Shown: piece after piece, positions 22-62,143 of the stretch
Numbering within the stretch: position 1 is the first letter of the stretch
Layout of the letters: the number at the start of each line of letters is the position of its first letter
Source: Mustelus asterias
Lineage: Eukaryota
DNA: 64,000 nucleotides
Direction of reading: 5' to 3'
NCBI RefSeq assembly: GCF_964213995.1
Contig: NC_135813.1
Span: 60,078,001-60,142,000, forward strand
The notes under the pieces: generated by a model
What the model was told of the DNA's origin: nothing
Seen by the model: the letters and a program-made list of their open reading frames with translations, nothing else
The model's database searches: none
Translations under genes and position numbers: made by a program

Positions 22-95
22 ATTGGTTGAAATGTAAAGGCTAATTTGCATTCCAACACAATGTAACACCTTCTTGCTGACAGGTGTTATTAAAA
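22..95 (+). promoter_or_regulatory. Ig light-chain V promoter, unit 1 (inverted CCAAT, octamer ATTTGCAT, E-box, TATA-like)
   Basis: ATTGG 22-26, ATTTGCAT 44-51, CAGGTG 81-86, TTATTAAAA 87-95, ~80-150 nt upstream of the leader ATG. The same four motifs recur in the same order at 44398-44471. Confidence 0.88.
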
Positions 96-174
96 GAGAG
101 AGAGAGAGATCCAGACAGTTAACCCATCTTGTCAAATAACTGGCAGAACTCGGTACCTCGGCAAACTTTTCACA

Positions 175-223
175 ATGAATGACTGGGTCCATGCGATCAT
201 TGTGTTCATTTTTGGACTGGCAT
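175..223 (+). CDS. Ig lambda (type II) light-chain leader exon, unit 1 (MNDWVHAIIVFIFGLA)
   Basis: ATG 175, 16 mostly hydrophobic codons plus 1 nt, donor GTGAGT at 224. Phase 1 matches the acceptor TTTCTTTCAG ending at 360. Confidence 0.92.
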
Positions 224-360: not shown

Positions 361-708
361 TTTCTAACGCGGCGATTACAGTCAGTCAACCGCCTTCGAA
401 ATCTACTTCTCTCGGAGGAACCGTCCAAATAAGTTGCACCTTGTCTGGCGCCAGTTTAGGAAGCACTACCATATATTGGTACCAGCAGAAATCTGGAAAT
501 GCTCCCCGGTATCTGCTTTATCACTATGCTGGAAGCAGCACTAACAGAGCCCCGGGAGTTCCAAACCGATTTTCAGGTTCGGAGTCCGGTAACACGGGAA
601 CTTTAAGTATCAGTCAAGTTGAATCGGAGGACACCGCAGAGTATTACTGTGCTATGTGGATAAGCAACTTGTGCTACTTCGGCAGCGGAACCAAGCTGAA
701 CGTTGGCA
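361..708 (+). CDS. Germline-joined VJ exon of Ig lambda/type II light chain, unit 1 (intact)
   Basis: Encodes (F)SNA-AITVSQPPS...ISC...WYQQK...DTAEYYC-AMWISNLCY-FGSGTKLNVG in one frame with no RSS between V and J. Donor A|GTGAGT at 709. Confidence 0.96.
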
Positions 709-1302
709 GTGAGTAAATTCCTTTCTGTTACATTGTTCAAAACTCGCTTCCGGTTAATAGCAAAACATTCCCTGGGTATCTTATTTTGAATAAATTGAAA
801 TGTCCTTTTAACAACACAACCATGAATTCAATTTAACCTATACAAGGCGACTTGCAAATAATGTTTGTATCTGTCCATTTCGATAATGCTTTCTGATCTA
901 TCTGTCAGTCTGCATTAAGTTGTCTTAGCTCAGGCAGAATAACAACAAGCAGCAAAATTCCTGTACCATCAGATCAGTGGGATGAACAAAGCGCTTTAAT
1001 CCTAATGTGCCATCACACGACCTTGCAGAGAAAGAAAACATGTAGATTCCCGGTAATACCAAGAAAAATCTCAATGGTTTTAAGTCCCGTTCCTTAAAGA
1101 CTTTACCAAATCACAGTGCCTATTGACACAAGTAAATAATGAGCACTTGCGCCAGTTACGTGAACTGATGGACCTCGCGTAGAAATAGCCCCTTATAAAT
1201 AGCCCATCAAATATAGCAAGAGAAATAGGAAGGCAAAAAATGGATGGTAAATCAAACTGACTACAACGCTCTGCATTCGGACCCCCTGCTAACTTTTAAC
1301 GA

Positions 1303-1579
1303 AAAGTAAAGTTTATTAATTAGCCACAAGTAAGGCTTACACTGCAATGAAGTCACTGTGAAAGTCCCCAAGTCGCCACACTCCAGCGCCTGTTGGGGTG
1401 AATGCACCTAACCAGCACGATTTTCCGACCGTGGGAGGAAACCAGAGCACGCGGAGAAAACCCACGTACACATGGGGAAAACGTGCAAACTCCTGACAGG
1501 CAGTGACCCTAGGCGGGAATCGAACACGGTTTCCTGGCGCTGTGAGGCACTAACACTAACCACTGTGCCATCGTGCCGC
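1303..1579 (-). mobile_element. tRNA-derived SINE in J-C intron (same insertion present in unit 2)
   Basis: Minus strand reads GCGGCACGATGGCACAGTGGTTAG...GTTCGATTC (pol III A/B boxes) through to an AATAAACTTT tail. Copy at the homologous site 9943-10240. Confidence 0.88.
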
Positions 1580-3205
1580 TCCTTCTCCAATGGAATTATT
1601 GCTACACTGAATATCCCGGATTTGATTTGAACTGAGGTTCAACCCGGAATTTTGATTTAAACAGACAGTGCAGGATGATTGGCCGCTCATGAGGAAACTC
1701 TTTCTATTGGACATTGTTTAATTGTACAGCACCCAAAGAAAAACTTTGAATTCACACGGCCCCTGTAAGTAAGGCTTGTATACTTCTCTGTCGAAGCGAA
1801 TGCTGGGTTGCAAGTAAAATAGCGAATCACTTACTGGTCTTCTCTGTAATGAATGAAACATTAACAAGTTTTACTACAGCGCAGAATCTTTTTAAAACTA
1901 ACATTGTGTGAACATGTGATCAGTGACATTAAATTTTATCATTGTGCTCCAACAATTCACATTGCCAGATTGCCCTTTGTATTGAGCATGCGCCCCACAG
2001 AGAAACATCTCCAGTTATTTCTGATGTTGAAATCTGATCTGAGTTTGTTGCTTATTTCCAGGCAGAGACCTGTAATCAGAGAAGGCAGAATGTGACCCAG
2101 TGTAACAATTCCACTGTATTAATAATGTTAATCATATCTAACACTTACCTCTTCCACTAATAATGCAGTCGAACTCGTCCACTATAAGACTAAAAGACCA
2201 TCTCTTAGCTCTAAACCTTGCTCGGAAAGTTGCATCAATATAGCGCCTCCATACCAGCAATATTAAGTGCCGATTGTAACTTGGCCCAGAGTGTAGCACG
2301 GTGGATGCTGGGTCGACAAAAGATTTTTCATTTCCCCCGACTCCTACTTCTGTCGACCTTAATGTAAAACTCTCTGTCCATAGATCACCAGTGTTAGCCT
2401 GTTGCACAAAGTCAAGGTTTCTATCATCTTGTCTAACAAAAGACGCACATTTAAGGACACACCCCGTACTGATAAATAGTTGCGTTTATTTCGTGGCTTG
2501 CATCCGATACATACCAGAGTGTTTGCTGTAATATTTTTATTAATGAGATCCCCAAAATGATCTCCGCGGCCACTTTTCCCCACAGACAGTAATGAGACCA
2601 ATCACTGGTTAATCTGCTTTCGCACAATGAGGACAGTCTGTCGGCATCTCCAAAACTGTAAGATTTAGTGAGTTAGGTCCATCAATCGAGGATCTTGGTT
2701 TAAATCTAATCCAAAAGCTGTCACCACCGCCTGAACCACATTCCCTTCGCTGGAATATCAGTCTAGGTAGCGCGGTCAGCTTCCAGCGTGGAGTTGAAAC
2801 CGTCTGACCCAAGAGGGGAGAATCTCACCGGGTGAAGCTGCCAGAGAAACTGCAACTACACTGCTCAGGATTATAACATAAAAGTTCATCAGTGAAACCT
2901 GATGGTAAAACTGATCAACATTTCTGCCCATTGGAACACAATAGGGCAAATTTAGTGTATGTTCAGCGTTTGTAAGTCTATTTCTAATTTTGACTGGCAA
3001 CGCAGATTTTCAATGTGGAGACACGGCAGCTAAAAATAACAGCGTTATTTTCAACAATATATCATGAACCAAGATATCTTTAATGATATTCTGGGAGACA
3101 TTGAGAAATATAATGCGCATGTATTGAATTGTTTTCTGTAAAATTGAACAGAGTCAACCCCAGTTCGACTCCAGTCAGTCATTAAAACTGAACTTCGCTT
3201 TTTGG

Positions 3206-3264
3206 ATCCAAATGTCCCAACGATCTCCCTCCTTCACCTTTCCTCGGATGAACACACAAAGTAA
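3206..3264 (+). pseudogene. Truncated C-like mini-exon upstream of C1 (acceptor AG mutated to GG)
   Basis: Phase-1 translation xPNVPTISLLHLSSDEHTK* aligns with the C-exon start xPQKPSVSLLPPSSDQITVK. Preceded by CTTTTTGG where the other units have CTTTTTAG. Confidence 0.72.
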
Positions 3265-3381
3265 AGGGATCTATTTATTGTATTCAATGAATGACAGAAT
3301 TTGGATCATATTGTTTGGAAAATTAAAGTGCGTCAAACAAATCAATTCCCCAACACTAAACCTATTTTATTTTTAAACCAG

Positions 3382-3704
3382 GTCCGCAGAAACCATCTGT
3401 CTCCCTCCTCCCACCTTCATCGGATCAAATCACAGTGAAGAACACGGCGACCCTGGTGTGTTTGGTGAGCGGTTTTAAACCGGGAGCTGCGGAGATTGAA
3501 TGGACTGTAGACGGCAGCGTCAGAGGGAATGGTGTTGAAACCAGTCGGGTCCAGCAGGAGGCGGACAACACGTTCAGTATGAGCAGTTATCTGACTCTGT
3601 CAGCCTTCGAGTGGAACTCACACGAGCTTTACTCCTGTCTGGTCAAACACGAGGCTCTAGCAAACCCACTTAAAACAACCGTCTCCAGATCGAGCTGTAT
3701 GTAA
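3382..3704 (+). CDS. Ig lambda/type II constant exon C1 (intact)
   Basis: Acceptor TTTTAAACCAG ending 3381, phase 1. Encodes SPQKPSVSLLPPSSDQITVKNTATLVCLV...EW...SSYLTLS..EWNSHELYSCLVKHE...SRSSCM*, with C1-set Cys/Trp motifs and the penultimate Cys. Confidence 0.96.
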
Positions 3705-4012
3705 ATTCAGAAACTGTTCTCGACCCAGCTGCGAATGTTTGTTCATTTCTGTTCATTTCTTTCATGTGACAAAAAGGGTAGAAATTGATCGCATTTCAGA
3801 AATTTAAGAAAATGGCCACCGCGGCTGGAGCTTCGGGTTTTATCACTTGCTCTTTTTAAAGGGTCTTCGATCGGACCATTGCCGGTGTTCAGTGAAACCT
3901 CGTTGTTTATTAATTTACCTTTATGTGTCCGATAATCGTAATTAAAATGCAACAATCTGGTTATGGCAATTTAAGAGTCTACTCACAGTTAGACATTTAG
4001 GTAAAACTGTTC

Positions 4013-4018
4013 AATAAA
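4013..4018 (+). terminator. PolyA signal, unit 1
   Basis: AATAAA ~310 nt after the C stop codon; conserved at 13902, 30242 and 48930. Confidence 0.8.
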
Positions 4019-4180
4019 ATAATTAAGATCAAATGCAATACGACCCACCGTATCTTTTATTGCTATTTTCAAGATAAGTCAAATTTAACACTTTTTCGGT
4101 ATTATTCAGCCTTACGTAACATGGTATATTGAAAAACTTTCATTGTCAACTTTGAGATGTAAGCTATTGTTCGTACTCTC

Positions 4181-4543
4181 TGTTGGTGGGGTACCCGAGT
4201 TGACCGGTACTGCCCAAGCTTTAGACCATGCAAGACACACGAAGCCAGTATTTCTGTATTAAAGATGTAACATATTAAAACCAACGGCTGCCAGGAGGTC
4301 ATCAAAGAGTTAAGTAGCTCTGACATAGAGCAGCAAAATCTCTCCAATGAATCTAACATATACAATCAAAAACAAATCAATTATACTTTTCTTCCCTTAT
4401 GAATCATTTCCGTCTTTCAGTAACTTTAAAACAATCATTTTCAAGATGCACAAATTAACAGTAAAACAAGTCAAATACCCTATCCAACCGCATTCTATCC
4501 CTCAGCATAATGGTATTTTATTAGTCCGAGAAATCTGGAAGGT
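4181..4543 (-). mobile_element. Partial LTR (same insertion as 14070-14979)
   Basis: Starts TGTTGGTGGGG at the site homologous to 14070 and matches that copy up to ...AAATCTGGAAGGT. Unit 3 has the empty site at ~30409. Confidence 0.7.
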
Positions 4544-10240: not shown

Positions 10241-11856
10241 CTTTGCAGATGGAATTATTGCTGCGTTGAATATCCCGGATTTGATTTGAACTGAGGTTCA
10301 ACCCGGAATGTTGATTTGAACAGACAGTGCAGGATGATTGGCCGCTCATGAGAAAACACTTTCTACTGGACATTGTTTCATTGTACAGCACCCAAAGCAA
10401 AGCTTTGAATTCACACGGCCACTGTAAGCAAGGCCTGTATACTTCTCTGCTGAAGCGTATGCTGTGTTGCAATTAAAATAGCGAATCACTTACTGGTCTT
10501 CTCCGTAATGAATGAAACATGACCAAGTTTCACGACAGCGCAGAGCCTTTTTAAAACTAACATTGTGAGAACATGTGATCAGTGGCATGATTAAATTTTA
10601 TCATTGTGCTCCAACAATTCACATTGCCAGATTGTCCTGTGTATTGAGCATGCGCCCCACAGACAGAAATCTCCAGTTATTTCTGATGTTGAAATCTGAT
10701 CTGAGTTTGTTGCTTATTTCGAGGCAGAGACCCGTAATCAGAGAAGGCAGAATGTGACCCAGTGTATCAATTCCACTGTATTAATGATGTTAATCATATT
10801 TAACACTTACCTCTTCCATTAATTATGCAGTCGAACTCGTCCACTATAAGACCATAAGGCTATCTCTTAGCTCTAAAGCTCACTCGGAAAGTTGCATCAA
10901 TATAGCGCTTCCAAAGCAGCAAAATGAGTGCGGATTGCAACTTGGACCGGAGTGCAACACGGTGGATGCTGGGTCGACAAAAGATTTTGCATTTCTTCCG
11001 ACTCCTACTTCTGTCAACCTCAATGTAAAACTCTCTGTCCTTATCATCAGTGTTACACTGTTGCACAAAGTTAAGGTTTCCATCATCTTCTCGAACAAAA
11101 GACGCACATTTAAGGATATAACCCGTACTAACAAGTAGTTGGGTTTATTTCGTGGCTTGCATCCGAAACATACCAGAGTGTTTGCTGTGATATTTTTATT
11201 AACGAGGACCCCAAAATGATCTCCGCGGCCACTTTTTCCCCATAGATGGTAATGAGACCAGTCACTGGTTAATCTGCTTTCGCACAATGAGGATAGCCTG
11301 TCGGCACTTCCTCCAAAACTGTAACATCTAGTGAGTTAGGTCCATCAATCGAGGAGCTTGGTTTAATTCTAATCCAAAAGCTGTAACCACGGCCTGAGCC
11401 ACTTTCCCAGTCAGTCCAGATAGCGCGGTCAGCTTCCCGTTTGGAGTTCAAACCGTCTGAGCCAAGGGGGAAGAATCTCACATGGTGAAACTGCGAGAGA
11501 AACTGCAACTACACTGCTCAGGATTATAACATAAACGTTGATCAGCAAAACATGATGGTCAAATTGATCAACACTTCTTCCTATCGGAACACAATAGAGC
11601 AAATTTAATGTATGTTCAGCGTTTCTAATTCTATTTCTAATTCTAACTGGCAATGCAGCTTCTCAATATGGAAACACGGCAGCTAAAAATAACTGCGTTA
11701 TTTTCAACAATATATTATGAACCAAGATATCTTTAATGGTATTCTGGGAGAAATTGCGAAATATAATGCACATGTATTGAATTGTTGTCTATAAAATTGA
11801 ACAGTCAACTCCAGTTCAACTCCAGTCAGTCATTAAAACTGAACTTCGCTTTTTAG

Positions 11857-11915
11857 AAACAAATGTCCCATCGGTCTCCCTTTTCCAGATTTCCTCGGAT
11901 GAACGCACAAAGTAA
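11857..11915 (+). pseudogene. Truncated C-like mini-exon upstream of C2 (acceptor intact)
   Basis: CTTTTTAG acceptor ending 11856; phase 1 gives xTNVPSVSLFQISSDERTK*. Confidence 0.72.
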
Positions 11916-11940: not shown

Positions 11941-12054
11941 ATTTTCCAAACAATATGATCTAAATCCTGTCATTCATTGAATACAATGAATGAATGACAG
12001 AATTTAGATCATGTTCAATGAATGACAGAATTTAGATCATATTGTTTGGAAAAT
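11941..12054. repeat. 41-bp inverted repeat enclosing an extra direct copy
   Basis: 11941-11981 is the reverse complement of 12014-12054 (1 mismatch). 11989-12012 directly repeats 12017-12040. Confidence 0.92.
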
Positions 12055-12115: not shown

Positions 12116-12439
12116 GTCCGCAGGAACCATCTGTCTCCCTCCTCCCATCTTCATCGGATCAAATCACAGGGAAGAACAGGGCGACCCCTGGTGTGTTTGG
12201 TGAGCGGTTTTAAACCGGGAGCGGCGGAGATTGAATGGGCTGTGGATGGCAGCGTCAGAGGGAATGGTGTTGAGACCAGTCGGGTCCAGCAGGAGGCGGA
12301 CAACACGTTCAGTGTCAGCAGTTGTCTGACTCTGTCAACCTTAGAGTGGAACTCACACAAACTTTACTCCTGTCTGGTCAAACACGAGGCTCTAGCAAAC
12401 CCACTTAAAACAACCGTCTCCAGATCCAGCTGTATGTAA
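12116..12439 (+). pseudogene. Constant exon C2 with +1 frameshift
   Basis: Acceptor ends 12115. GCGACCCCTG (12181-12190) versus GCGACCCTG in C1 shifts the frame to a stop at 12213. Also SSY>SSC. Confidence 0.88.
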
Positions 12440-27437: not shown

Positions 27438-29109
27438 TCTTTTAGTCTCAGGTTATCCTAAACTCCTCTAACAAAGACACATTTATAACAGCAGAGAAAT
27501 CCTTCTGTTTTCAATGTAAAATTGCAAGTTCCAAACTGGACCTTAATGGGCGTTTCAAGTCTGCGCGCATCATTAGGGGGCGTGGTGAGGACTCTCCTGC
27601 GTCGCGCTGGTTCTTGGGGAGATGGTTTCGCGGCGGGAGGATGCTGCTCCGATTGGAAGTTCGGGCACAATTTTTCAGACCAAGTAAGCGTCGAAACATT
27701 CTCTGGCCCATAAATTCCAATGGCCAATGTACGGTCGGCCAAAAATAGAAACAAATTGCATCGTTAGGTCTCCTGAACAACTGCGCCGAAACTACCGATG
27801 TATGCAGCAGGCTCGAACACACAACAAAGTCATCTGACCAGACCCCAGCGTGTGGGAAGAGATCCCTAACCATGCTGCCTTATGACGTGGCCAGCCTGGG
27901 AACGCCCTTTGAGGTCCAGGTTCCAAAAGGCAGTTTTGCATTTAAAACGGCCCCTGCTCTTAGAAAAGTACGTATTGGTATTTGCATTTAATCTTTTTTG
28001 CTATTTCTTTTAAGTAGTTCATACAGATGGCTCACCCAAACCGTATTTTGTTAAATTTATTGCAATTATTGAATATGGGTGTTATTTAATATGTATAAAT
28101 GAAAAAATGTGTTATTGGTTTAAAGTTGGTGAAAGTACTATTTAGAGTCATAGAATCATAGGGGTGAATTTTCCCTTTCCACCTGCCACACAATAAATCT
28201 TCCATACTAGCAATGTGAATGTGCAGTTTAACTTGGCCAAGAATGTAAAAGATGTGGGGTCGGCAAAAGATTTTAGGTTTCTCTCGACTTCTATTTCTGC
28301 TTAATTCAATGTAAAACCCTGTGCCCATTTATCATCAGTTTTACACAAAGTGAGAAATTCCACCATCAACTCCTCAACATTTAAGGACAAAAATCATTCA
28401 GATAATTAATTGTATTTTTTTCGTGTCTTGTATCCGAAGCATACTAGAGCGTTTTCAGAACAATTTTTATCAATGAGATCCTCATAATGATCACCGCGGC
28501 CATCCTCGCCACACGTTTCACACAAACAGCAACGCCACCAATCACGGGGTAACCTGTTTTCGCGCAAGGATGAGAGTATATCGAGACTCCCTCCAACGCT
28601 GCAATATTCAGTCATTTAGGTCCATCAAATCAGGATCTAGGTTTAATTCTAATCCAAAAGCTGTCACAACGGTCTTGGGCCACATTCCCTTCACTGGAAT
28701 ATCAGTGTAGATATCGCGGTCAGCTTCACGTGCGGGGTTGAAACGGTCTGAGCCAAGAGGTGAGAATCTCACAGGGTGCAACTACCCGAGAAACTGCAAC
28801 TACCTGTTCAGGATTATAACATAAAAGCTCATGAGTACAATCTGTCCCAAAACTGATCAAAAGTTCATCACACCAAAGCATATTAGCATAACTTTAATGT
28901 ATGCTTAACGTTTCTAGTTGTATTTCTAATTCTGACTGGCAAAGCAGCAACTCAATGTGGAAACATGGTTGATATGAACAGTCAAGATATATATATTTCA
29001 CACAATTCAGGGATAATGTTGCGAAATATAATGTACATATGTTGCTTTGTCCTGTAAAATCGAACTGAATCAATTATTGTTCAACTGCAATCGCTTTTTA
29101 GACTCAAAA

Positions 29110-29426
29110 CATAGAATGATAGAATCCCTACAGTGCAGAAGGAGACCATTCGGCCCGTCGAGTCTACACCAACCGCAATCCCGCCCAGGCCTTATTCTCG
29201 CAACCCCACATATTTACCCTGCTAATCCCCTGATACTAGGGTAAATTTGGCATGGTCAATCAACCTAACCTGCACATCTTTGGACTGTGGGAGAAAACCA
29301 CAGCACACGAAGGAAACCCACACAGACACGGGGAGAATGGGCAAACTCCACACAGATAGTGACCAAGCCAGCAATCGAACCCGGGTCCCTGGCGCTGTGA
29401 GGTAGCAGTGCTAACCACTGTGCCGC
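29110..29426 (-). mobile_element. HE1-like SINE inserted into the C-like mini-exon of unit 3
   Basis: SINE lies between the CTTTTTAG acceptor (ends 29101) and the remainder VSRIFLLQPSFEETAK (29434 onward). Confidence 0.9.
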
Positions 29427-29610
29427 TCTGTACGTCTCACGGATCTTCCTCCTTCAGCCTTCATTTGAAGAGACTGCCAAGCAAGGGGATTCTATCATGA
29501 CTTTTATATTCAGTGAATGCCAGAATTTTAGAATTATATTGTTTCGAAAATATCTCGTGTGAACAAATCAAATGTTTACAACGACTAACCCTCGTTTATT
29601 TTAAAAACAG

Positions 29611-29932
29611 ATCCGCAGAACCATCTGTCTTCGTCCTTCCTCCTTCATCTGATCAAACCACAGCGAAGAACACGGCGACCCTGGTGTGTTTGGTGAGCGG
29701 TTTTAAACCGGGAGCTGCGGAGATTGAATGGACTGTAGATGGCTGCGTCAGAGGGAATGGTGTTGAGACCACTCGGGTCCAGCAGGAGGCGGACAACACG
29801 TTCAGTGTGAGCAGTTATCTGACTCTGTCAGCCTCAGAGTGGAACTCACACGAGTTTTACTCCTGTCTGGTCAAACACGAGACTCAAGCAAACCCACTTA
29901 AAACAACCGTCTCCAGATCCAGCTGTATGTAA
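29611..29932 (+). pseudogene. Constant exon C3 with -1 frameshift at its 5' end
   Basis: Acceptor ends 29610. CCGCAGAACCA versus CCGCAGAAACCA in C1 and C4 makes the exon incompatible with a phase-1 J donor; the remainder is open to SRSSCM*. Confidence 0.85.
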
Positions 29933-44547: not shown

Positions 44548-44596
44548 ATGACTGGCTGGGTCCCTGCGATCATTGTGTCAATTTTTTGCCTGGCAT
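44548..44596 (+). pseudogene. Leader exon, unit 4 (MTGWVPAIIVSIFCLA), donor GT>AT
   Basis: Homologous to 175-223 but followed by ATGAGT instead of GTGAGT. Confidence 0.88.
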
Positions 44597-44842
44597 ATGA
44601 GTATGTTAAAATGTAGAGTTGCTCTAATTGCTCCTTTATGAAGACTTTTCGTGTGATACTTCAACGAAATTACAATCCTATAATTGCAAGAATTGATAAC
44701 GGTACCTGGGCAATAAGATTTTTCATGCCAATTTCTTTCAGTTTCAAATGCGGCGATTACAGTTAGTCAACCGCCTTCGAAATCGACTTCTCTCGGAGGA
44801 ACCGTCCAAATAAGTTGCAACTTCACTGGCGACAGTTTAGGA

Positions 44843-46316
44843 TGTGGAGATGCCGGCGTTGGACTGGGGTGAACACAGTAAGAGTTTTAACAACACCAGG
44901 TTAAAGTCCAACAGGTTTATTTGGTAGCAAATACCATTAGCTTTCGGAGCGCTGCTCCTTCGTCAGATGGAGTGGAAATGTGCTCTCAAACAGGGCACAG
45001 AGACACAAAAATCAAGTTACAGAATACTGATTAGAATGCGAATCCCTACAGCCAGACAGATCTTAAAGATATAGACAATGTGGGTGGAGGCAGCATTAAG
45101 CACAGGTTAAAGAGATGTGTATTGTCTCCAGACAGGACAGCCTGCAAGTCCAGGAGACAAGCTTTGGGGGTTACTGATAATGTGACATAAATCCAACATC
45201 CCGGTTTAGGCCGTCCTCATGTGTGCGGAACTTGGCTATCAGTTTCTGCTCAGCGACTCTGCGCTGTCGTGTGTCATGAATGCCACCTTGGAGAACGCTT
45301 ACCTGAAGATCAGAGGCTGAATGCCCGTGACTGCTGAAGTGCTCCCCCACAGGAAGAGAACAGTCTTGCCTGGTGATTGTCGAGAGGTGTTCATTCATCC
45401 TTTGTCGTCGCGTCTGCATTGTTTCCCCAATGTACCATGCCTCGGGACATTCTTTCGTGCAGCGTATCAGGTAGACAACGTTGGTCGGGTTGCAAGAGTA
45501 GGTACCGTGTACCTAGTAGATGGTGTTCTCACGTGAGATGATGGCATCCGTGTCGATGATCCGGCACATCTTGCAGAGGTTTCTGTGGCAGGGTTGTGTG
45601 GTATCGTGGTCACTGTTCTCCTGAAGGCTGGGTAGTTTGCTGCGGACAATGGTCTGTTTGAGGTTGCGCGGTTGTTTGAAGGCAAGAAGTCGGGGTGTAG
45701 GGATGGCCTTGGCGAGATGTTCGTCTTCATCAATGACATGTTGAAGGCTCCGGAGGAGATGTCGTAGCTTCTCCGCTCTGGGGAAGTACTGGACGGCGAA
45801 GGGTACACTGTCCACCGTGTCCCGTGTTTGTCTTCTGAGGAGATCGGTGCGGTTTTTCGCTGTGGCGCGTCGGAACTGTTGATCGATGAGTCAAGCACCA
45901 TATCCTGTTCTTATGAGGGCATCTTTCAGCGTCTGGAGGTGTCTGTTGCGATCCTCCTCATCCGAGCAGATCCTGTGTATTCGGAGGGCTTGTCCGTAGG
46001 GGATGGCTTCTTTAATGTGTTTAGGGTGGAAGCTGGAGAAGTGGAGCATCGTGAGGTTATCGGTGGGCTTGCGGTACAGTGAAGTGCTGAGGTGACCGTC
46101 CTTAATGGAGACGCGTGTGTCCAAGAATGCAACCGATTGCGGAGAGTAGTCCATGGTGAGTCTGATGGTGGGATGGAACTTGTTGATGTCATCATATAGT
46201 TGTTTCAGTGATTGCTCACCATGACTCCAAAGGAAGAAAATATCATCGATGTATCTAGTGTACAGCATCGGTTGAAGGTCCTGTGCGGTGAAGAAGTCTT
46301 GTTCGAACCTGTGCAT
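44843..46316 (-). mobile_element. 5'-truncated Penelope-like retroelement (RT plus GIY-YIG; Cys-rich linker suggests Neptune type)
   Basis: One frame 46316>45171 with two in-frame stops: RYIDDIF, LYRKPT...HF.SFHP, PCHRNLCKMC, NVVYLIRC...WYIGET. Perfect 12-bp TSD GACAGTTTAGGA (44831-44842 / 46317-46328). Confidence 0.95.
44934..44970 (-). ncRNA. Minimal type I hammerhead ribozyme in the Penelope 3' repeat
   Basis: Minus strand: CCAT-CTGACGA-A-GGAGC-AGC-GCTCC-GAAA-GCTA-ATGG (stem I, core, stem II, palindromic mini stem III). Confidence 0.8.
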
Positions 46317-48131
46317 GACAGTTTAGGAGGCAGCATCATGTATTGGTACCAACAGAAATCTGGAAATGCTCCTCGGCTTCTGCTTTATCATTGGGCTGGA
46401 AGCAGCATCAACAGAGGCTCGGGAGTTCCAGACCGGTTTTCAGGTTCGGTATCCGGCAACACGGGAACCTTAAATATCAATAAAGTTGAATCGGAGGACA
46501 CGGCGGACTATTACTGTGCTATATTGCAAAACAGCCTGTACTACTTTGACAGCGGAACCAAGCTGAGTGTTGGCAGTGTGTAAATTCTTTTCGCTTACAT
46601 TGTTCAAACTTTGCTTCAGGTTTGCAGCAGAATGCAATAACTATTTAATGTTGAAGTAATTTGATCGTCTTTTTAACAATATAACCGTTAATTTAATTCA
46701 AATGTCACGAGGCGAGCTTGCTAACTGGTTAAGTACTGAGTCTTGTAGTTGTATGTATTCTGCCTATCTGTTGAGAGTGGAGTTTTGTTCTGCACTGCGC
46801 TGCATCATCTGAGCCACAATAGCAACTAGCCTCAGACTCTCTGTACAATGAGATCAGGGAAATCGGGAAAAACCTCAAATCTTCATCTGCGATCGAATAC
46901 CTTGCATGGAAAAGCATGTACCTTCGGTCGTGACAAGAATGATCTCAATGGTTACGTACCCCGTTTCTAAAGTACCTTACCAAAATGCAGTGCCTGTTCG
47001 TACTGGTAAATAATGACCACTTGAAGTGACGAAACTCGCCAAAACGTAGTCCCTCATAAATAAATCTTTCAGAGCAGCAAGGGCAATCATTGGACTTTAA
47101 TAATGAAACCAAACTCTCCAAAAATCTGTTCGTTCTCACCTTTGCTCGAGAAAGTATATAAACATAAATCTTCCAGGCCAGCAATGTCAGAGCGTTGTTT
47201 CATTTTCTCCATAGGGTAAAATGGCTGGTGTGGGCTTAGCAAAAGATTTTACATTCCTCCCGATTTAAATTTCCGTTCAGCCCAATGTAAACCAGTTTAA
47301 GACAGTTGCAAAAAGTCAATGTTTCACCCATTATCTCCTCCTACAAAGCACGCATCTACAAAGGACCAAAATCGTCCACTGATTTGTTGTATTTATATCA
47401 CGATTTGTATCTGAAACATCTGAAACATGCCAGTGCGTTTGCGAATTTTTTTTGTTAATGTGATCCCTCAATGATCCCCGCGGGCATCCGCGTCACGTAT
47501 TTCTCACAGATAGCAATGCGCCCAATCACTCGTTAATCTGCTGTCAAATAATGGGGATACTCTGTCGCCACTTCCTCCAAAACTGTAATAGAGTAATTTG
47601 GATCCATCAGATCAGGATCTCGGTTTAATTCTAATCCAAAAGCTGTCACCACCACCTGAGCCACATTCCCATCGCTGGAATGTCAGTCTAGATAGCGCGG
47701 TCAGCTTCCCGTGTGGGGTTGAAACCGTCTGAGCCGAGAGGGGAGAATATCACAGGGTGAAACTGCCAGAGAAACTGCAACTACACTGCTCAGGATTCTA
47801 ACATAAGAGTTCATCAGTAAAACCTGATGGTAAAACGGATCAACAATTGTTCCCATCGGAACACAATAGAGCGAATTTAATGTATGTTCAGCGTTTGTAA
47901 TTCTATTTCTAATTCTGACTGACAAAACGACGTCTCATTGTGGAAACACGGCAGTTAAAAATAATCGTGTTATTATCAGCAATATATTATGAACCATTAA
48001 ATATTTAATATAATTCACGAATGAAATCGTGTAATATAATGTGCATTTATTGAATTGCGTTCTATAAAATTGAACAGAGTTAACTCTAGCTCAAGCCCAG
48101 TCAGTCATTAAAACTGAACTTTGCTTTTTAG

Positions 48132-48178
48132 ATCCAAATGTCCCATCGATCTCCCTCCTTCACCTTTTCCACGGATGA
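48132..48178 (+). pseudogene. Truncated C-like mini-exon upstream of C4 (acceptor intact, +1 frameshift)
   Basis: CTTTTTAG acceptor ending 48131; xPNVPSISLLHLFHG*. Confidence 0.7.
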
Positions 48179-48310: not shown

Positions 48311-48633
48311 ATCCGCAGAAACCATCTGTCTCCGTCTTTCCGTCTTCGTCAGCTCAAATCGCAGCGAAGAACACGGCGACACTGGTGTGTTTGGTGAACT
48401 GTTTTAATCCGGGAGCTGTGGAGATTGAATGGACTGTCGATGGCAGCGTCAGAGGGAATGGGGTTGAGACCAGTCGGATCCAGCAGGAGGCGGACAACAC
48501 GTTCAGTGTAAGCAGTTATCTGACTCTGTCAGCCTCAGAGTGGAACTCACACGAGCTTTACTCCTGTCTGGTCAAAGACGAAATTCAGGCTACGCCGTTT
48601 CGAGCAAGCAACTCCAGATCCAGCTGTATGTGA
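48311..48633 (+). CDS. Constant exon C4 (open frame, divergent; its own V is disrupted)
   Basis: Acceptor ends 48310, phase 1. PQKPSVSVFPSSSAQIAAKNTATLVCLVNCFNPG...YSCLVKDEIQATPFRASNSRSSCM*. Conserved His>Asp and an extra Cys suggest decay. AATAAA at 48930. Confidence 0.8.
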
Positions 48634-59841: not shown

Positions 59842-60409
59842 ACGATAGGAGGAAGTTAAGGGCCAGTATATTCCTCCTTAAATATGCAGGGAACTGTACA
59901 CTGTGCTGCCGGTCTGTTCTTCTCCCAAAGCCCCAAGCCGTATAAAATTGGAACAAGAACTTGATTTCTTGAACTATAATTCCTTTGGAAGAAATGTCAA
60001 CAAACAAATTCCCTTTATAAATGCTTGCTGTACCTGCACGATAATATTGTGTTCATTGTACCAGAATACTTGAGTCTTCCTGAACATCAATCAATATTTA
60101 GACGCTTCAGGCCTTTGAAAAATATTCTGCTTTTCCATTCTTGGTACCAATATGAATAACCACACATTTCTCCAACTTATATCCCATCTGTCATTTTGCT
60201 GTCCACGTTTTTAAACCTCTCTTTATGTATTTGCTGCCTCCTTGTCTCGTCCTCCTCATAGGGTACATTTCCGTCAAGCTTTGTGTCATCAGCAAACTTG
60301 AATTCTTGACTCTGCGTCCAAGCGTGAAGCACCGAATATCGAATGTGAATCTCTGAGGCCCAGTGATGGGTGGGTGGGGGGAGGGGGGGGGGGAGGTGTT
60401 GGCGGGGGA

Positions 60410-62143
60410 TGTTGTCAGTGAGTACAAACTTTTCCGTTACATTACTCAAAACTTTCATCGCATTAACAACAAGATAATATAGTTGTCTGGATATTTTAAT
60501 TTGAATAAATTTAAATGTTCTTACAGCAATAACATTATAACATAGATTTAAATGACACAATACTACCCTGCTAACTATGTAGGAACTGAACTTTCCAGCT
60601 CTATACGGTTTTCTGGTCTATGAGTTCAGAATGGAGCTTTGTTTTCTGTTGAGCCATTTTACCTCAGGCACAATTGTAACTAGCCTCAGACTCGCTTCGC
60701 CACAGAATGGGGAATAATCTTAATCTGCCAGCCAGTGAAGTCGCTGGGTGATACAATGTGTGGATTTTACAGAATTGTAAGATTGAGTTCTTTGAATATG
60801 TATCCCGTCCTCTAAATAATTTACTATGATAAAAATGATAATGCGCGCCAGGTATTTTCTGTAATGGACAATCTGAAAATGTAATCCTGTATAAATGCTC
60901 CCTCAAGAATAGCAAGAGCAGATCAAAGAAATAAATGGTAAAATTAACCATGAATTATCTGCGTTGTGGGCTTGCTATTAGCTTTATAACTGTAACTATT
61001 GTTATACTGAATAAAACAGCTTTGAATTATAAGTGAGGTTCAGTCCAAATGTTGATTTAAGATGAGCGCGCAGGATGAATGACCGCACAATGAGGAAACA
61101 CTTCATGAATATCGCATTGGTGAGTATGGCGCCGAGGAGATTTTCACAGTAACTTCATTGCAGTGTTAATTTAAACCCACTGATGACACTTATAAATACT
61201 CTTAAATCTAAACTTAAACTTAAACTTGTGACGCACCCTATGCAAGGCTTTGAATTCACAAAGTAACCCATGAATAAGGCATGTATATTTCTCTGATGAT
61301 GTACTTGCGGATTTGTGCTCGAACTATTCACATTGTCAGATTATCCTATGCATCGAGTGTTATTTCTGCTGTTGAAATCTGATCCGAATTGTTGCTTATT
61401 CTGATGCACAGACCTGTAATCAGAGAAGTGAGAATGGAAGTCAACTTAACGATTCCGTTGTATGAATAGTGTTGATCATACTTTTTCTTTTCGTCTTCGA
61501 CTTCAATAAGGAAACCAGACCTAATAACGTTAGCGGTAAACCTTGCTCCAGGAGATATAAAAATATATAAAATAAATGCGAAATGCTACGGATGCGGGTA
61601 ACCTGAAATAAAAACAGAAAATTCTGGATGAACTCAGCAGGCCTGGCAGCGTCTGTGGAGAGAAGCAGAGTTAACGTTTCGGATCTAAATGATCATTTTG
61701 CAGAGGCCTGTAGAAGGATAATTTCAATCCGAAATGTTAACTGTGTCTCTCCACAGGCGCTGCCAGACCTGCTGAGTTTATCTCGCATTATCTGTTTTTA
61801 TTTTATATTATTTAAAAATATAAATTTCCGCACACACAATGTGAGTGCGCGATTTAACTGAGCCGATAGAGTAAAGCAGCTGACGGAGGCTTGACCACCG
61901 ATTTTACTTTTCCGCCGATTTTTCTTTCTGTTGAGTTCAATGTTAAACTCTCTGGCCGTTTATCACTTGCTCTATATTATTGCACAAGGTTACTCCTATC
62001 ATCTCCCCTTACAAGGCATGCAACGTGGAAGGACAAAAATCATACAAATATTTAGTTGTGTTTGTTTCGGTGCTTGTGCCTGAAACATGGAGCATTTGCA
62101 GAAAAATATTTGGTTAATGTGATTCCCATAATGATCCCCGCGC
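60410..62143 (+). pseudogene. IgL unit 5 remnant: J 3' stub, splice donor and diverged J-C intron
   Basis: TGTTGTCA|GTGAGTAC...TTTCCGTTACATT matches CGTTGGCA|GTGAGTAA...TTTCTGTTACATT (701-734). Intron homology continues: 61021=1621, 61325=1955, 62110=2540. Confidence 0.78.
61606..61803. repeat. ~200-bp palindromic repeat element (Penelope-terminal-repeat-like)
   Basis: AAATAAAAACAGA...CTCAGCAGG.CTGGCAGCG.CTGTGGAGAGA pairs with TCTCTCCACAGGCGCTGCCAGACCTGCTGAG...TCTGTTTTTATTT. Confidence 0.8.

Follow-up and report, generated by a model that had tools for sequence, protein, structure and literature searches.

Organisation of the lambda light-chain array

The window analysed here is a stretch of 64,000 nt (C13:60078001-60142000) in which four units of a shark lambda (type II) immunoglobulin light-chain (IgL) array, referred to as units 1 to 4, lie in tandem. 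Positions are those of the window, and the exons and fragments described lie on the forward strand. A further unit, unit 0, lies 20 kb upstream of the window, at C13:60058598.

Only unit 1 is a complete gene. Its promoter and leader region (44..223) carries an octamer at 44, a TATA-like box at 88 and a leader exon at 175-223 with a GT donor. It is followed by a germline-joined V-J exon (361..708) with an open V-set frame and the phase-1 donor GTGAGT at 709, and by an intact C1-set lambda C exon (3382..3704; acceptor AG at 3380-3381), 3' of which polyA hexamers occur at 3941 and 4013. The germline-joined V-J, its open frame and its FGXG J motif are those of a shark lambda cluster, and the single lambda-type C1-set exon with intact splice sites places the C region in the same class. 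The C exon is 65-100% identical to 24 paralogues on contig C13 and 45-49% identical to the light-chain C exons of contigs C8 and C26. Moreover, the database gene model P0080, labelled Mustelus asterias, has a V-J identical to that of unit 1 and its J joined to the unit 1 C.

According to PMC4279169, every shark lambda gene studied is germline-joined. The lambda (NS3 / type II) IgL clusters of cartilaginous fish are numerous and comprise one germline-joined V-J and one C each. Unit 1 agrees with this arrangement but carries an additional fragment of a C-exon start, which is confined to five of the 28 units on C13.

The unit 1 V-J exon (361-708) is apparently the sole intact local member of a long-CDR2, germline-joined lambda V subfamily. 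The subfamily is also conserved, often in multiple copies, in 12 further species of sharks and rays, and the nearest non-shark (tetrapod) matches of the unit 1 V include proteins labelled IGLV5 and VpreB.

The remaining units are incomplete. Units 2 and 3 are devoid of V-J, and their C exons are frameshifted, by +1 in unit 2 (12116..12439) and by a 1-nt deletion near the start in unit 3 (29611..29932). Unit 4 has an open C exon (48311..48633) preceded by a leader and V-J pseudogene (44548..46575), in which the leader donor is AT rather than GT, the J motif reads FDSG and the V is split by a Penelope-like insertion of about 1.5 kb (44843-46318) flanked by a 12-bp target duplication. The inserted element is a 5'-truncated Penelope-like retroelement on the minus strand, with an RT-like YIDD motif and a weak GIY-YIG match. 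Unit 0 has an intact C, and its likeness to unit 1 starts within the J-C intron. It was considered as a second functional gene and rejected, as no V-J was found within 30 kb upstream or among the 150 scored V matches. A sixth remnant at 60407-62142 consists of a J donor and pieces of intron after a poly-G run, without V, fragment or C.

A constant-exon fragment in the J-C intron

The fragment is a degenerate copy, about 75 nt long, of the start of a C exon, comprising the splice acceptor and the first ~60 nt of the exon, and it lies inside the J-C intron. It was originally predicted, as a truncated C-like mini-exon, before every constant exon. This holds within the window, where it precedes all four C exons by 176-509 nt, but not on contig C13, where only five of the 28 lambda C exons have it. 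The distance from the acceptor of the fragment to that of the C exon is 176 nt in unit 1, 259 in unit 2, 179 in unit 4 and 509 in unit 3.

In unit 1 (3190..3264) the acceptor remnant is GG at 3204-3205, followed by 59 nt to a TAA, and the peptide encoded at 3206-3264 is PNVPTISLLHLSSDEHTK, then stop. The unit 2 fragment (11841..11915) has an AG at 11855-11856 and a frame open to the same TAA as in unit 1, encoding TNVPSVSLFQISSDERTK, then stop; a Pfam search gave no match for this frame. The spacer between fragment and C in unit 2 contains about 80 nt of locally duplicated or inserted sequence at 11941-12014. The unit 3 fragment (29086..29490) has an AG at 29100-29101, followed by 8 nt, a SINE-like insertion of about 320 nt (~29110-29430) and then VSRIFLLQPSFEETAKQG. 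In unit 4 (48116..48178) the AG is at 48130-48131, and the frame is shifted and ends at an early TGA, reading PNVPSISLLHLFHG, then stop. Unit 0 has an AG and an open frame of 19 codons; the frame is open over the same 19 codons to the same TAA in units 0, 1 and 2, which are close copies of each other. The phase of the fragment agrees with that of the J donor.

The AG and the T-run are retained in four of the five copies, and the single loss, to GG, falls in the working gene, unit 1. The peptides, their positions, the AG in units 2, 3 and 4 and the GG in unit 1 were therefore all as originally described. The accompanying picture of AG-bearing units as genes with a J donor and a V could not be upheld, as units 2 and 3 lack any V-J; none of the five units pairs an AG acceptor with an expressible V-J.

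The GG of unit 1 is covered in both runs, X1 and X2, by a 125-nt contig over 3174-3298 with zero differences and 30 letters on the shorter side; these runs come from one sample, possibly the assembly's own, and consist of contigs only. The contig argues against an assembly error. Among the joints listed for X1 and X2 there was no GT..AG joint, and contigs of both runs span introns. One joint, 3241-3365, was considered as a splice junction and rejected: its ends are CC..TA, and it is most likely the contig of a paralogue.

Origin and distribution of the fragment

Aligned without gaps and in register at the acceptor, the unit 1 fragment agrees with the first 60 nt of the unit 1 C exon (C1) at 38 of 60 positions; the background across the window is 15 ± 3.5. 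A local alignment of the C exon with the J-C intron scored 41 at the fragment, while the maximum among 500 dinucleotide shuffles was 38. Profiles built from 20 lambda C exons, all outside this array, matched the fragments of units 0, 1, 2 and 4 at 8.6-13.6 bits (shuffles, n = 300, at most 6.3 for that profile), from about 15 nt 5' of the acceptor to about nt 60 of the exon. The unit 3 fragment reached 0.5 bits, which is not significant, and is tied in through its likeness to the other copies. Conversely, a profile of the five fragments matched lambda C starts at the first bases of the exon but not a single one of the 10 non-lambda C loci searched with it. The register with the acceptor, the shuffles and the profiles together indicate that the fragment is a genuine piece of a lambda C exon. 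The C origin put forward for the mini-exon is thus borne out, with a nucleotide alignment to the C 5' end beyond chance (equalled by 0 of 500 shuffles), and the proposal that the ancestral unit carried a partial C duplicate is supported by the homology, by the profiles and by the restriction of the fragment to one array.

As to the donor, the best profile was that of the KEKDKA subgroup of C exons (L121 and L123), which scored 13.6 bits where the other subgroup reached 4.2; by identity, C1 is equal (38/60). A longer duplication was considered and rejected, since the match to the C profiles ceases at about nt 60, and the intron 5' of the fragment is unlike the spacer 5' of C (72 of 500 shuffles were equally good) and unlike other lambda introns.

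The five fragment-bearing C exons on C13 are all adjacent. A DNA search and a pattern search of the whole genome recovered four of the five copies and nothing elsewhere, unit 3 being too diverged for both. Likewise, scanning some 6.5 kb 5' of each of the other lambda C exons (n = 23) with a profile gave nothing better than E = 8 apart from C starts. This confinement to five adjacent units indicates that the fragment arose once, before the array expanded.

Sequence constraint on the fragment

Across the five units, 28 of 51 columns are invariant in the fragment. Flanking intron has 83/150, 82/141 and 63/115 invariant columns (55-58%) and the C exon has 257/321 (80%), so that conservation of the fragment does not exceed that of the intron. 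On the 40:14 sites of the fragment, nonsynonymous and synonymous changes numbered 7:2 when units 1 and 2 were compared and 14:5-6 when the fragment was set against C, these counts being small (18 codons); for the C exon of units 1 and 0 they numbered 7:7 on 243:75 sites. The amino-acid changes of the fragment look neutral. Purifying selection on its frame or residues was not detected, with small counts and a raised identity between units 1 and 4. This identity is 53/57 in the fragment and 606/757 in the intron (Fisher p = 0.014, uncorrected). It is one of four such comparisons with unit 1; none of the remaining three was significant, and two lean the opposite way. The raised value could reflect patchy exchange between copies, which is proposed because unit 3 is 94% alike to unit 1 in C and 75% alike in the intron.

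The C exons (3382-3704, 29611-29932 and 48311-48633) appear to be mosaic. At the C-terminal end of C, units 0-3 resemble the distant L121 subgroup, and unit 4 resembles the catshark orthologue P0086. On the basis of these sequence comparisons, the mosaic structure suggests gene conversion.

One block of the J-C intron, at 2700..2990 and without an assigned strand, has 189 of 279 columns (68%) invariant over the five units, compared with 55-58% in its flanks. It has five matches in the genome and is absent from other lambda introns. Simple patterns revealed no octamer or NF-kB motif in the block, and Rfam gave no matches in 700-4200. The block is a candidate cis-element, either an enhancer or a conversion tract.

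Splice acceptor and polyadenylation signals

On a simple, home-made and crude acceptor matrix, built from 39 paralogous acceptors of other Ig loci of this genome, the AG of the fragment scored from -1.3 to -0.6. This is lower than 37 of the 39 sites used for training, and the AG ranks 14-27 among the 87-148 AGs per intron. The true C acceptor scored 4.9-6.5 and ranked first or second in its intron; in unit 0, the C AG also heads the top scores. Rescue of the unit 1 fragment by the next AGs, at 3261 and 3266, was considered and rejected: they score -10.7 and -14.0 and rank 128 and 145 of 150. It is conceivable that a transcript reads through beyond C1 and the polyA signals of unit 1, so that the unit 1 donor is joined to the AG of unit 2.

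No canonical AATAAA lies between the stop of the fragment and the C exon in any of the four units examined. The variants found there are AGTAAA on the stop in three units and non-aligned ATTAAA in two. Because AATAAA is lacking, the fragment, if used at all, would act as an alternative 3' splice site that leaves the C exon as an untranslated tail, and not as the separate alternative terminal exon that had been suggested.

Interpretation of the fragment

The fragment is most probably an inert relic of an old partial C duplication, spread by tandem duplication of the cluster. Inertness is likely because the sole intact gene lacks the splice signal and the four copies with an AG lack a working V region. 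One old partial duplication would have placed a lambda C start, with its acceptor and first beta-strand, in the J-C intron, and tandem duplication of the cluster would then have given the five fragment copies. Unit 1 would splice from the J donor (709) over the fragment to the true C acceptor (3381), the best-scoring AG of the intron. With its short pyrimidine tract, the fragment was probably a poor competitor even while the AG stood, and the AG of unit 1 may subsequently have been lost through drift or weak selection.

That this loss removed a harmful cryptic acceptor is an unlikely reading, although the sole loss of an AG falls in the sole intact gene. The proximal AG would have taken splices in ancestral working genes, giving leader-VJ with about 19 residues and a stop, beyond which spacer and C exon would form the 3' UTR; selection would then have favoured the change from A to G in unit 1. 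This change is one of two private to unit 1 in 102 aligned columns. The intron tree of the five units has a total length of 0.53 substitutions per site and a terminal unit 1 branch of 0.041; with two sites, the chance of a loss on the unit 1 branch is about 8%, but about one loss is expected on the whole tree and one is seen. The loss is, moreover, a single event noticed after the fact, the acceptor scores of the fragment are weak, and the AG was kept through most of the history of the array, presumably in working genes. According to PMC4710196, truncated Ig light chains made by aberrant splicing (exon skipping) can harm mouse plasma cells; those chains are likewise mis-spliced with one domain missing, but they lack V, whereas the hypothetical shark product, known from DNA only, would lack C. 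Selection behind the loss of the AG in unit 1 is suggestive but unproven.

Still less probable is a functional alternative 3' splice site that yields a secreted V-only lambda chain with a short tail in other sharks and was lost in this lineage. The agreement of phase with the J donor, the 19-codon frame open in units 0, 1 and 2, the raised identity of the unit 1 and unit 4 fragments (p = 0.014) and the wide conservation of the V subfamily, with its IGLV5- and VpreB-labelled nearest non-shark matches, are compatible with it. Nevertheless, no copy in this genome can make the product; the changes in the fragment look neutral, unit 4 is frameshifted, unit 3 carries an insertion and there is no canonical polyA signal of its own. 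A pattern search of 36 protein models from sharks and rays found 35 J-C junctions in 33 of them, all entering a normal C (the pattern missed P0110, P0143 and P0151, of which P0110 is normal in alignment). The peptide of the fragment was present in none of the 151 proteins fetched, which are gene models of the kind that seldom show minor isoforms. A word search with the fragment frames scored none of its 721 candidates at E <= 10, which is weak evidence, and the two proteins obtained in a full HMMER scan were unrelated repeat proteins. Within this genome, the V-only chain or decoy of the original prediction is therefore unsupported: an AG and an expressible V-J occur together in none of the five copies, conservation across the five does not rise above that of the intron, the amino-acid changes appear neutral and the acceptor scores low.

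It would be a long shot that intact genes of this V subfamily in other sharks keep the AG and secrete a V-only chain with the 19-residue tail. If true, this would be a VpreB-like product made by splicing and switched off in this lineage; were orthologues to splice to the fragment, alternative splicing would yield a V-only light chain in the oldest of the lineages that have immunoglobulins. VpreB of the surrogate light chain consists of a V domain and a non-Ig tail, and is encoded by a dedicated gene without J or C. The hypothetical product would resemble it in combining a lambda-like V with a short tail; unlike VpreB, the unit 1 V is accompanied by a J and an intact C, and the tailed form can be made by no copy.

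Finally, a chance resemblance of a pyrimidine-rich intron stretch to a C start has almost no probability left: identity across the 60 nt is only about 63%, the stretch is rich in C and T and the C profiles give no significant score for unit 3, but the match begins exactly at the acceptor, its score was reached by 0 of 500 shuffles and the fragment profile found lambda C starts only among the loci fetched (0 of 10 non-lambda), and these in-register, isotype-specific sequence matches largely refute it.

As a relic, the fragment would be a small case of the birth-and-death process within a lambda array of a shark, as well as an ancestry marker for one subfamily. Human IGLC4 and IGLC5 are truncated or pseudo constant exons in a tandem J-C array, i.e., decayed C left by duplication. 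The defective C-lambda of spotted gar, according to PMC5985310, is likewise a decayed C left by duplication in an IgL locus. In contrast to these separate pseudogenes, the piece described here is 60 nt long and lies in the J-C intron of a working gene, with its acceptor in phase with the J donor. A literature search, outside which most subscription papers fell, did not find a C-derived fragment in shark lambda introns.

Two more divergent V-J and C clusters with a long CDR2 and without the fragment adjoin the array, L035/L036 (C13:60149768-60154246, minus strand) and L129 (C13:60169716-60173195, plus strand). Their C exons are 50-56% identical to C1.
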